The notes beneath the pieces were generated by a model that saw only the letters and a list, made by a program, of their open reading frames with translations, ran no database searches and was not told the DNA's origin. A DNA stretch of 64,000 bases from Euglena gracilis. Taxonomy: Eukaryota. Below, in pieces: positions 21,901 to 24,723 of the stretch (position 1 is the first letter of the stretch; every line of letters starts with the position of its first letter). The position numbers were made by a program, and so were the translations under genes. Location: NCBI GenBank assembly GCA_039621445.1, contig CP154954.1, positions 40,727,572-40,791,571 of the forward strand, given 5' to 3'.

Positions 21901-24723
21901 ATGGGTGGCCAAAATGGCCTAAAATGGCCTAAAATGGCCTAAAATGGCCGAAAATGGCCGAAAATGGGGAATTTTTGGGCTTGACTATAGGCTATAGATA
22001 GGTGCTTGGTCTGCACCATCTTGCCCAGGGTCGGAGTGAGATTCTGTGTTAACCCTCCACCAACCCTCTTGCGCGGCAAGGCTCAGGGGGCTGATCTGCC
22101 AAAACAAGAACCAAAATTGAAGGGAGAAAAAAGTGGCAGAAGCACAACCGCCAGGGTCGTCGGCCCGACGATGTCATTCATCGCCTCGCACGCCCAGTGC
22201 CTTTTCTTTTGCCACCCCTCCCCCTTTCCTGTGTTGGCCGACCCCTTTCGCTGCGAGGCCCATCCATCTCCAGTACCATGTTCCGAAAATACAAAAACTG
22301 GTATCATTTTAGAATCAAAATCAAATTTTGCTTCCATTTACGTTTTTGGGGGTTGGGTCGTTGGAAAAAAAAAAGTGGGCGGGCCGACCCCGGGAAGGGA
22401 AGGGGCCGTGCCGGGGAGGTGGATGCCGGCCGGGTCACCACTGATGACCAGCCGCTCTACAACCGCGCTTTCTGCGCCGCCCCCCGCCGGCCACCGTCCC
22501 CAGGCCCCCCCCCCAGGAGGGGGCTTGTTAATAATGGGGTTTTGGGGGTAGAGAACCTACCGACCTGCTGGTTCCGGGGGCTGGTCGCACTTTTGGCGCG
22601 CCTGTTTTCTTGGAATTGACGCTTCCCCGATAATCAGGCCCGCTGCCCCGATATATACCGAAAAATTGCCAAGTTTTTGCTATTCTGGGGTGTTGACCAG
22701 CAGTGCTTCTGACAATAATGGGGTTTTGGGGGTGAGGAAACCAGCTGACCTGGTCCCGGAAGGCTGGTCGCACTTTTTGGCACCCCCCCCCCCATTTCCT
22801 GGCCTGGCCTGGGTTGGTGGGCGGTGGGTGGGTGCGGGGGCCGCCCCACGGCCGGCGCAACGCGACGACGTGCCATTTCACCGCCCCGGCGTCCACGGCG
22901 TCGCTGGAGGTCCGGTTCTGGCCGCAGATGATGGCGGCGAACGGCGCGGTGGACGGCCGGGGGCCCGCGGTGCCGCAGGCCCCATTTTGGTCCGTCCGGC
23001 CGGGCACCCCCCCCCCCTCCCCGGCAGGGTGTCGCCAGGGCATGTCCTCACTGGCCTGGAAGGTACCCCCCCCTTGTCTAAGCACCACCCCCCCGGTTCT
23101 TACCCATCTTTTTAAAGGTCATCGTTCCGGGAGGTTTATTTTGTGTGCATTTTTAAGGGAAATTTCTCAAAAAATTCGAAATTTCTGCAACTTCTGAGAC
23201 CTGATTTGGTGAGGTATTGTTGATTTCTGCCTCCAAATTTGTGTAAGTTCAACAGTGGACCTCCAAAATAAGGGGAATTTTTTCTTTTCAGCGCGAAGCA
23301 AAGCCGGATTTTTTTTGCAGTTAAATTTTTACCCCTTGTCTAAGCACCACCCCCTGGTTCTTACCCATAGTTTGGCAAAATAGGCACCCCCCCGGTTCTT
23401 ACCCATCTTTTCTGGTGCTTAGACAAGGGGGGGTATGTCAGTATGCAAATCCACATGCACAAAAAGTGCACACCGACAACGAAGAGAGGGGAGGGGGAGG
23501 GAGGGAGGCACACAGCCGAGTCTATCTCTGGGGGAACTGTAACACCGAAACGTGGCACCGCCCCCCGCCCCCAATGTGTTGGCCTCCGGGTTGTGTTATT
23601 ATAAGCCAGTTTGCCAACTGTGAAGCCATGAGGGCTGAAGCCAGCTTCGCGGCCGGGGGAGCAGGAACTGCCAAGCGGAGTTGCGCGTCGATGCCTTAAC
23701 AGATCAACTGCCCCTTGGACACAGACCTTGCCCCTGTCCAATGGCTGCCCTGTGGCCAGTGATCACCCCTGATCAACGGACCGGAGGGGCCCCTGACCCC
23801 TGGTCGCGAGAGAGGGGGCGGAGGCTGGGGTGTTTGTGGGGACCCCCCGCGGCCCAGCGCGCGCCGCCGGGGCCATCCAGCGGCGGGGCTTCTTCTCCTT
23901 CGCTTACCGGGGGCTGCGGCCGGTGCTGCCGGGGCAGATGTCGCTGCACAACAACTGCATCAAGGCCGGGCTTGCATTTCCGAAGACCCCTCCCCCCGGC
24001 CTTCACCGGGTGTCCGCGGCAGAACCTTCCCGGGGGCCTGGGAATGGGTCCAGCCAATAAAAAAGTCTGTTGTTTTTGTTTTAAAAAAAAACAATGGGCA
24101 AAATGGTAGATCATTGGTCGTTGTAGGTTTTTTGTGGCAAAAACTGAAAATATGTGCAGGGCTCCAGAAATCAGGGGAAATAATCAGAATCCGAAAATGA
24201 GTTCAAGGCCTGGTTTTTTTGATCTTTTTGCAACTCCCCCTCTTGCCCCCCCCCCCCCCCGAGGTCCCTTGGCAGGTGGCCTCCTGTGGGTCTAAAATGA
24301 AAGCCTGCTCAAGAGCCTGGCCAACAAGCTGACCCGCCAGAAGAAGGCTGGGTTATGTCCATGGCTTCATTTAACACCTGTGTGACCCCTCCCCCCCCAG
24401 AGGGGGCGAGTGGGTGGGTTTTCGGCGCCTGGGTGGGTTGGGGCTGCTGGACCCCCTGGGGAGTGTGCCATGTCTGGCCCGGCGAAAGGCCGGGCTTGGG
24501 AAAATAAACTTCTTGCTTCTTTCTTTCAAGGGGTTTCGACTGATTTTGGGTGGGTTTGGGGTGGGTGGGTGGGTGGGTGGGACCCCCGGGGGTTATGTGT
24601 GGGTGTGTTTTTGAAAAGAATGGTGGAAATGTTTGGGACCCAGGAGAAATGGCCCCCACTGGGTGTCACTAAGTGAATCCATGGTTCTGGTGGTTGGACG
24701 AGGAGGGTATCTGTCTCGTGTAA
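3968..24723 (+). CDS. Multi-exon nucleotide-diphospho-sugar transferase (GT77 / Nucleotid_trans-like) with N-terminal signal peptide and long N-terminal region
   Basis: Exons 3968-4055, 4382-4414, 5016-5110, 5619-5661, 6143-6158, 7056-7170, 7653-about 7700, several unresolved between 8150 and 12200, about 12395-12482, 13942-about 14016, about 14864-15019, 15759-15792, 16300-16356, 20364-20409, 20541-20639, 22416-22475, 22847-about 22954, about 23855-23963, 24313-24356, 24689-24723 (TAA). Start MPWCLWVAVLLALLSATRG. Spliced motifs in GT77 order: VMLTTSTIGYLDFVLNFACNLEKLQLPHYVIAALD, ILQLGYALFVIDSDVVLFRNP (DxD), YAQSD, FNAGLFFV, DDQPLYN, AANG, HNNCIKSLANKLTRQKKAGLW. Continuity of the N-terminal half with the catalytic half is inferred. 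Confidence 0.8.
4056..4381 (+). other. Non-conventional / intermediate intron (GT...CC)
   Basis: +4 CAGGCAAGCCCC pairs with GGGGCTGCCTG ending at -6; removal keeps frame (PRCG-CPSHLDSNHC). Confidence 0.8.
4415..5015 (+). other. Non-conventional intron with TSD remnant
   Basis: Perfect IR CAGGGCATCC / GGATGCCCTG at +4/-6; flanking 8-mers CTGCCCCC / CTGCCGCA (6/8); joins NHC-RSPLVLFMVQ in frame. Confidence 0.85.
4530..4996. repeat. (CA)n microsatellite, imperfect then pure
   Basis: Directly visible; more than 120 bp pure CA at the 3' end. Confidence 0.97.
6330..6995. mobile_element. Dispersed MITE-like repeat with (AATTTCCCGC)n subterminal arrays; sibling at about 25880-26440
   Basis: Shared AATTTCCCGC arrays and internal AACCTGAAA...GGCCAT...GGGAACCCA segment in both copies; G-run / C-run ends. 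Confidence 0.65.
7924..7990. repeat. Fold-back hairpin, 30-bp arms
   Basis: TTCCGGCGGTGCAGCCCCACGTGCACCACC, 7-nt loop, reverse complement with one mismatch. Confidence 0.92.
12483..13941 (+). other. Non-conventional intron
   Basis: +4 CAGCCTCC pairs with GGGGGTTG at -6 (with G-U pairs); restores GYLDFVLNF. Confidence 0.8.
14141..14263. mobile_element. Short hAT-like MITE; sibling at 19709-20002
   Basis: TIR CAGGCTGTTTTTT / AAAAAACAGCCTG; TSD GGGCCGAC / GTGCCGAC. Confidence 0.85.
15020..15758 (+). other. Non-conventional intron
   Basis: +4 CAGGGCCGGGTCA pairs with TGACCCGCCGTG; Y|R at both junctions; restores QLGYALFVIDSD. Confidence 0.85.
15143..15578. mobile_element. MITE, GGCAATTG(A/T)C family (siblings 41007-41464 and 62943-63436)
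   Basis: TIR CCCCGGGCAATTG / CAATTGCCCGGGG; repeated AATTGTCACCCC motifs; conserved core GACCATAGCTGCATTTTTGC. Confidence 0.88.
15793..16299 (+). other. Non-conventional intron
   Basis: +4 GAGGGTGGCG pairs with CGCCCCCCTT; restores DSDVVLFRNP. Confidence 0.78.
16579..17003. mobile_element. TA-flanked MITE with CTTGTAGTGGAC repeats; sibling at about 13570-13814
   Basis: Ends TAACCCCCCCCCTAAT / ATTAGGGG...GGTTA; shared internal motifs with the sibling. Confidence 0.7.
17676..18013. mobile_element. hAT-like MITE with perfect 8-bp TSD, nested in another element (about 17615-18346)
   Basis: TIR CAGACGTTCATTTAGTGCGCCG / CGGCGCACTAAATGAAAGCCTG; TSD GTGCTGGC on both sides; GTGCGCCGCG subterminal repeats. 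Confidence 0.92.
19709..20002. mobile_element. hAT-like MITE (family of 14141-14263) with degenerate left TIR
   Basis: TSD CTCCGGAA on both sides; shared TAGTCGGGTGCCGA and GGTGCCTGCCTGGGCAGGCAC core; right end CAGCCTG. Confidence 0.8.
20640..22415 (+). other. Non-conventional intron
   Basis: +4 CAAGGGCCCTTCC pairs with GGAAGGGGCCGTG; restores WMIAEVDAGRVTTDDQ. Confidence 0.8.
21218..22008. mobile_element. hAT-like non-autonomous element with (AAAATGGCCT)n subterminal repeats
   Basis: TIR CAAGCACCTAT / ATAGGTGCTTG; TSD GTCTACAC / GTCTGCAC. Confidence 0.87.
22476..22846 (+). other. Non-conventional intron
   Basis: +4 GCCCCCCGC pairs with GCGGGGGC; restores NRAFCHGRRNATTC. Confidence 0.7.
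23066..23433. mobile_element. TA-TSD MITE (Tc1/mariner-like)
   Basis: TA|CCCCCCCCTTGTCTAAGCACCA ... TGGTGCTTAGACAAGGGGGGG|TA. Confidence 0.85.
23964..24312 (+). other. Non-conventional intron
   Basis: +4 CGGGCTTGCATTT pairs with AAATGAAAGCCTG; TSD remnant ATCAAGGC / CTCAAGAG; restores HNNCIKSLANK. Confidence 0.83.
24360..24683. mobile_element. MITE that constitutes an entire intron (intron 24357-24688)
   Basis: TIR CATGGCTTCATTTA / TAAGTGAATCCATG; TSD remnant GTTATGTC / GTTCTGGT; removal yields KKAGLWWLDEEGICLV*; sibling copy at 34872-35194. Confidence 0.87.

Follow-up and report, generated by a model that had tools for sequence, protein, structure and literature searches.

A MITE-like repeat that probably forms a nonconventional intron at the end of a Euglena-type gene

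A 64,000-nucleotide stretch of DNA (contig CP154954.1 of Euglena gracilis; referred to below as the window) contains a 324-bp unit, copy 1, which very probably fills the final intron of a Euglena-type gene. The window itself looks like euglenid nuclear DNA (GC 0.555, packed with repeats). The best explanation overall, to which we assign a probability of roughly 0.6, is that a unit resembling a MITE (miniature transposable element with inverted repeats) was inserted into this gene and is removed as a nonconventional intron. According to the proposed mechanism, the unit would be a non-autonomous DNA element, the tip class of which makes 8-bp target-site duplications, and one copy may have been inserted at ...GTTAT|GGT..., among the final codons of a glycosyltransferase-like gene, from which it would now leave the pre-mRNA in the manner of euglenid nonconventional introns. 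Its inverted ends would pair in the RNA, cuts would fall 3 nt outside the paired tips on the 5' side and 5 nt outside them on the 3' side, and the element would be excised together with one duplication's worth of sequence (3+5 = 8 nt), restoring the Trp codon and the reading frame. We infer the exact junction, the duplication at copy 1 and the direction of events (insertion creating the intron). The coordinates of the features are summarized in Table 1.

The 324-bp unit is a discrete repeat with terminal inverted repeats (TIRs; 12/14 in copy 1 and 11/14 in its sibling, copy 2). An earlier note on this DNA, which was made from the sequence alone, had described the two copies as collinear, and this was borne out: the mean column identity was 79% (MAFFT), a global alignment gave 234 matches (83% of the 281 columns free of gaps, 72% of the full length; mean of 59% and maximum of 61% in 50 shuffled controls), and blastn gave 65% over 341 columns. 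The 22-nt 5' terminus occurred exactly twice in 64 kb (expected, 0), and the 13-nt 3' terminus was present at both copies (expected matches, 0.5). The likeness broke off sharply at 24360/34872 and 24683/35194, beyond which the flanks were unrelated. CCATGG was found within 24300-24750 only at 24359 and 24679, and a (TGGG)9 run was located inside copy 1 at 24547-24581. No Pfam match above the cut-off was obtained with the two longest open reading frames (ORFs) of copy 1 (one had a sub-threshold low-complexity match, the other had no match), and an Rfam search of copy 1 returned no family, with a 16-bit chance match only. In the outer arm of the sibling (34872-34876/35190-35194), CCATG is changed to CTGTG through two transitions, and this arm still pairs with CAUGG in RNA via G-U; with two changes only, this is not significant.

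The element is likely to be multi-copy, on the basis of contigs from a DNA run (X2), which was aligned at 80% likeness together with a raw RNA run (X21) and two runs guessed to be RNA (X15 and X16). The summed contig depth in X2 was 6591 at 24401 and 20976 at 35136 (33-84 for nearby single-copy contigs), at sites that both adjoin G-rich low-complexity DNA and at which depth does not equal copy number. One particular indel was carried by 20 X2 contigs at 24401 and by 46 at 35136, a 107-nt internal deletion (34943->35051) was present in five X2 contigs, and in two mosaic joints, the 5' tip of copy 1 was connected with internal sequence of copy 2. An X2 contig spanning 34411-34901 ended 30 nt inside the sibling, as would be expected where a repeat begins. 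A metagenome scan with the 22-mer 5' tip gave 0 matches; six metagenome loci with a split-tip pattern were rejected as chance matches (no internal similarity; GC 0.34-0.43). Concerning the earlier description of a dispersed family, two copies together with X2 contigs that imply more agree with a family, and dispersal goes beyond the evidence of two copies in the window.

The predicted nonconventional intron has the length of the element plus 3 and 5 nt and is slidable by TG (2 nt). As had been claimed, copy 1 splits a Trp codon, and its removal restores the frame: deletion of 24357-24688 joins TG|G to give ...KKAGLWWLDEEGICLV, followed by the stop at 24721-24723. In this register, C24360 and A24361 fall at +4 and +5, and T24682 and G24683 at -7 and -6; CA at +4,+5 and TG at -7,-6 are the most conserved positions of nonconventional introns (PMC3935182). 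The two spacers measure 3 and 5 nt, and G (a purine) opens the following exon. In both the minimum free energy and centroid folds, 24359-24364 paired with 24679-24684, and TTCATTT with AAGTGAA, and the folding energy of the whole predicted intron was ordinary (z = -0.32). Neither functional GT/GC-AG borders nor a polypyrimidine tract was found. The flanking 8-mers, GTTATGTC and GTTCTGGT, match at 5/8 positions, with the mismatches in letters that would belong to the intron and be free to drift.

Coding frames in this region were marked by GC at third codon positions (GC3) and, therefore, the removed piece must be 2 mod 3 long. In the RNA-verified gene on the same strand further downstream (see below), GC3 was 352/406 (257 and 198 in the other frames). 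In the gene of copy 1, it was 51/54 in frame ...HNNCIKESLLKSLANKLTRQKKAGL (22876-22945 + 23929-23965 + 24300-24357; 26/55 and 28/54 in the other frames), and the tail after copy 1 had 8/10 in the WLDEEGICLV frame vs 26/56 in the other open frame. The joint 22945->23929 was found in 19 X21 reads and two contigs; it was nonslidable, had GC..TG borders and lay outside the published code, and the gene is, therefore, expressed and uses nonconventional splicing. The start of the penultimate exon at 24300 was derived from the 37-letter limit of this joint, and none of the 15 joints listed (of 1286) belongs to this exon.

The depth at 24401, inside copy 1, was 1 in X21, 0 in X16 and 20 in X15, whereas exon sites (22469, 22876 and 23904) had 25, 25 and 16, respectively, in X21, 78 in X16 and 119.1 in X15. 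RNA was nevertheless retained in the bin 24470-25016 (X21, 4.5+1.2; X15, 33.7; X16, 14.9), and was near zero beyond 25016. This pattern fits the skipping of copy 1, without locating the junction.

The same logic was found complete in an RNA-verified nonconventional intron of the neighbouring plus-strand gene, which has 10 GT-AG introns and this single RNA-supported nonconventional one. The joint 28019->28625, slidable by 8, was found in 36 X21 reads and in one contig each of X15 and X16, and the register 28025-28629 reads N3-CTG...CAG-N5|G, in accordance with the code of PMC12501133. The excised piece takes in the final 3 nt of the left-hand duplication, the element and the initial 5 nt of the right-hand one; since 3 + 5 = 8, the element plus one duplication is removed and one intact 8-mer is left. 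The 8-bp logic that underlies the empty site predicted for copy 1, GTTATGGT, was thus displayed perfectly by this intron, and four other elements had perfect duplications. Copy 1 had been called the clearest link in the window between a mobile family and intron gain; this position belongs to 28025-28629, with its RNA joints, perfect 8-bp duplication and agreement with the code.

These elements were found in a scan of all 8439 perfect 8-bp direct-repeat pairs lying 60-2500 nt apart, in which the requirement was an inner inverted repeat matching at 11/14 or better. Forty-eight pairs were retained: 38 in a satellite at 50.4-51.1 kb, 3 in a C-run and 7 others. Five of the seven remaining elements begin with CAG or CTG (approximately 0.3 expected by chance, by our own arithmetic). 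Perfect 8/8 duplications flanked the elements 17676-18013, 28028-28624, 28244-28354, 32746-32994 and 33075-33189, and, among the matches listed, 7/8 duplications were present at 2573-3009 and 14141-14263. The tip module CAG...TTCATTTAGTG or CAG...TCCATTTAGTG is present in the elements at 17676 and 28244, and the other three are CAG/CTG-tipped. Because the 3' arm of copy 1, CATGGATTCACTTAGTG, shares 11 of 14 positions with the 3' TIR arm (reverse complement) of the element at 17676-18013, copy 1 was placed in a tip class with fresher, 8-bp-duplicating members. Taken alone, the motif-plus-8-mer criterion gave no enrichment (11 matches vs 5-9 in 10 shifted controls), and the elements were separated from the background only once the inverted-repeat criterion was added. 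A TIR-first unbiased scan was too noisy to be used (6208 candidates, with a distribution of flank identity resembling that of the control).

Several observations weigh against the removal of a MITE-like insertion as a nonconventional intron. The strict code N3-CDG/CH'G-N5-6, checked by hand, does not hold in any of the three registers (CAT...ATG), since the third motif pair (G+6:C-8) is T:A in place of G:C, and in PMC12501133 the one intron examined was no longer spliced upon single changes in CAG/CTG. The 3/5 rule on which the earlier note had relied agrees with the length of the intron (element + 3+5 nt), the frame and GC3; its spacers and the purine also fit the published code, from which the motif departs. 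The 5/8 match of the flanks, taken alone, has a chance of approximately 0.03 (at least 5/8; our own arithmetic), and those of the sibling match at 1/8, which is no duplication. The joints listed (15 of 1286) do not include the junction 24357|24690, such that the earlier claim of excision from mRNA is carried by the low depth inside the element and not by a joint; moreover, an alignment at 80% likeness admits paralogues and other copies as noise, and the RNA status of X15 and X16 is a guess. Protein searches for the C-terminus against longer proteins found none with a 56-aa query (mostly intron) or a 98-aa query, and an 87-aa query against the whole library gave two weak, uninformative matches to proteins of approximately 1900 aa (29-31% identity). 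A third full copy was not found in the 64-kb window by blastn or an nhmmer profile, leaving two copies.

Among the alternatives, the one that survives best, although we regard it as unlikely, is that copy 1 is removed at other boundaries: as a GT-AG intron at 24357-24673, the sole in-frame pair of this kind, giving ...GLLNPWFWWLD..., or in the register 24356-24689 (334 nt). The GT-AG cut leaves the tail frame unchanged, the 334-nt cut is obtained under a strict 3/5 count from the outermost possible pair (C24359:G24684), and both are compatible with the predicted junction being missing from the joints listed. However, the donor and acceptor at 24357-24673 scored -2.0 and -6.0, vs 7.8-11.4 and 10.2-17.7 in 10 verified introns, and scores at least as high were reached by 57% of GT and 58% of AG sites in the background; no pyrimidine tract is present. 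The 334-nt cut places the tail in the frame with a GC3 of 26/56, vs 8/10 in the predicted frame.

It is similarly improbable, in our estimation, that copy 1 stays unspliced. Without splicing, the reading frame stops at 24383-24385 and, thus, the protein would be truncated (...KKAGLCPWLHLTPV) or the gene copy would be decaying, with the downstream RNA as an untranslated tail or a separate transcript. The departure from the strict code, the junction missing from the joints listed and a C-terminus fixed by no protein match all suit this possibility, whereas the fall in depth at 24401 relative to the exons, with RNA again in the bin 24470-25016, and the coding-like GC3 of the tail do not.

We give little credence to an order of events in which the intron came first, namely, that copies of an old nonconventional intron, or of the RNA circle that it yields on excision, arose elsewhere, or that the element replaced an existing intron, so that the family would derive from an intron. 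Nonconventional introns form circular RNAs once excised (PMC11282704), double-strand-break repair has been proposed as a source of 8-nt repeats (PMC4770533), and the sibling has no duplication. On the other hand, the 3+5 spacer letters of copy 1 are absent from the sibling, variant copies are present in the DNA run, and the tips fit a class with perfect 8-bp duplications, four of the five members of which sit within introns instead of constituting one. Very improbable is a non-mobile origin by local duplication or by chance likeness of G-rich low-complexity DNA, which is favoured by the spacing (10.5 kb, same orientation), interiors rich in G/C runs and shuffles that already align at 59%, and is opposed by the exact 22-nt and 13-nt termini (0 and 0.5 matches expected), the unrelated flanks, the 12/14 TIR, and DNA contigs, some of which link one copy's 5' tip with internal sequence of the other and five of which carry the 107-nt internal deletion.

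The observation made in the earlier note was, therefore, partly confirmed, and its interpretation as a MITE insertion turned intron was partly supported: plausible, and unproven at the key step.

Table 1. Coordinates of the repeat copies, predicted and RNA-supported introns, and associated features in the window.
Feature	Position	Strand	Description
Element copy 1	24360..24683	+	324 bp, GC 0.58, non-coding
5' terminal inverted repeat of copy 1	24360..24373	+	CATGGCTTCATTTA; 12/14 vs reverse complement of 24670-24683
3' terminal inverted repeat of copy 1	24670..24683	+	Reverse complement CATGGATTCACTTA, continuing GTGA
Left flanking 8-mer	24352..24359	.	GTTATGTC; putative decayed target-site duplication
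Right flanking 8-mer	24684..24691	.	GTTCTGGT
Predicted nonconventional intron	24357..24688	+	332 nt; equivalent registers 24356-24687 and 24358-24689
Penultimate coding exon (inferred)	24300..24357	+	Reads ...ESLLKSLANKLTRQKKAGL; ends with TG of split Trp codon
Last coding piece	24689..24723	+	G of Trp, then WLDEEGICLV, stop TAA 24721-24723; transcript to ~25016
Element copy 2 (sibling)	34872..35194	+	323 bp, orientation as copy 1
Conventional GT..AG intron hosting sibling, WD40/WWE gene	33902..35275	+	Donor cagGTGTGT
Nonconventional intron built of TIR element 28028-28624	28025..28629	+	Perfect 8-bp duplication GCTGGGAC, TIR 11/14
Element of the same tip class	17676..18013	.	338 bp; tips CAGACGTTCATTTAGTG / CAGGCTTTCATTTAGTG, perfect 8-bp duplication GTGCTGGC

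The terminal KKAGLW motif of the host gene of copy 1 had been called GT77-type, and this identity was not confirmed. None of the eight exon-bearing ORF pieces matched Pfam at E<=1, which is a weak test with exons of approximately 12-35 aa, and the atlas leads were GT-A glycosyltransferase families, all below 0.9, with PF03407 at rank 22. The motifs DDQ..N and HNNC presumably resemble those of GT77. No frame-consistent model was obtained from the joints listed for upstream exons near 22443-22482 and 22843-22945. RNA was also present over 23904, upstream of the acceptor at 23929, suggesting an in-frame alternative acceptor near 23872. At 22469, 22876 and 23904, the window has T where all four runs, that of DNA among them, have C; this is a difference of strain or assembly rather than RNA editing.

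The sibling had been placed inside an ordinary GT-AG intron, and the evidence agreed with this. The sequence GTGTGT comes after the exon that ends at 33901, and CTCAG and GT border the exon 35276-35335 on its left and right, respectively. Thirty-nine X21 reads run off at 35335, and the bin 34316-34862 was almost without X21 RNA; the joint of this intron itself was not among the joints listed. A 13-exon model gave 406 codons with 0 stops (7 and 8 stops in the other frames), and the exon 33777-33899 encodes the first half of a WWE domain (E = 7e-4). The gene (27900-35335, +) is well expressed and has at least 13 exons, WD40-like exon matches and a WWE domain that is split by the sibling's intron.

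Other repeats were noted in the window. The 111-bp element 28244-28354 (TIR 13/14, perfect 8-bp duplication CTGGGAGC) is nested in the element 28028-28624, and the DNA-run depth at 28332 was approximately 605,000, vs approximately 70 for single-copy DNA, so that its family is very high-copy. Small CAGG-tipped elements at 33075-33189, 2573-3009, 32746-32994 and 14141-14263 have flanking 8-mers matching at 8/8 or 7/8; the tip CAGGGTTTGATATAAGGA is common to those at 33075 and 2573, and the conventional intron 32687-33237 contains two of these elements. A tandem array of a 19-bp unit (at least 26 copies) occupies 50413-51151 and, being partly palindromic, yields hundreds of spurious inverted-repeat pairs. 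A 119-nt repeat with GGGCAATTGACGCCCCC-like 17-nt units is present in four copies (15145-15263, 41009-41127 and 62981-63417) with 83-100% identity.

A wider proposal is put forward tentatively, as a possibility rather than as our expectation: that the 3+5 spacers mirror the 8-bp duplication of CAG/CTG-tipped elements, that insertions of these elements into exons are born removable, and that the CATGG family widens the code by T:A for G:C. If true, any insertion of a CAG/CTG-tipped TIR element into an exon would be an exactly removable intron from birth, and a compensated T:A pair could stand for G:C, broadening the published splicing code. The window provides testable cases, consisting of a tip class with 8-bp duplications, an RNA-verified intron made of such an element and the older copy 1, by which the hypothesis of a transposon origin and the 3+5 = 8 logic become directly checkable genome-wide.

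The idea that nonconventional introns originate from MITEs is already published: it was proposed in 2013 (PMC3935182) and repeated in PMC4770533, PMC11170887, PMC11282704, PMC12621601 and PMC12501133, and a named family would be new. According to PMC3935182, no transposable element was known in euglenids as of 2013, and a 2025 PNAS paper (PMC12501133) still calls the origin of these introns, which account for 71.8% of E. agilis introns, unclear. The genetically defined code in the latter is 5'-N3CDG-/-CH'GN5-6|R, and it is carried by 61.2% of the annotated nonconventional introns. No paper tying a named repeat family to a nonconventional intron was found in a literature search, outside which lay supplementary datasets, possibly with motif classes.

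Intron 4 of gapC in Euglena agilis ACOI 323, which was recently gained, is also a nonconventional intron with flanking 8-nt direct repeats; however, these were read as a trace of double-strand-break repair, and the text available links no repeat family to them (PMC4770533). Introner elements of Micromonas, dinoflagellates and others are similar to copy 1 in that a repeat copy plus part of a duplication makes up the whole intron, and differ in being removed by the spliceosome at GT-AG or co-opted sites (PMC11282704), whereas the removal of copy 1 would use the nonconventional machinery.

With MITEs and non-autonomous TIR transposons that make 8-bp duplications, copy 1 has in common that it is short, non-coding and probably multi-copy and has imperfect TIRs of 14-18 nt, and elements of its tip class in the window bear perfect 8-bp duplications; in contrast, copy 1 is GC-rich rather than AT-rich, its putative duplication has decayed to 5/8 (absent in the sibling, at 1/8), and neither an autonomous partner nor an empty site was encountered. 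TIR elements with 8-bp duplications are presumably those named hAT-like or P-like. The predicted intron differs from known euglenid nonconventional introns (Milanowski et al. 2014, 2016; Nomura et al. 2025) in having T:A instead of G:C at the third pair and in that its excision is predicted, and shares with them the absence of usable GT-AG ends, pairing inverted repeats, CA at +4,+5 and TG at -7,-6 with spacers of 3 and 5 nt, a purine as the next letter and slidable short direct repeats.

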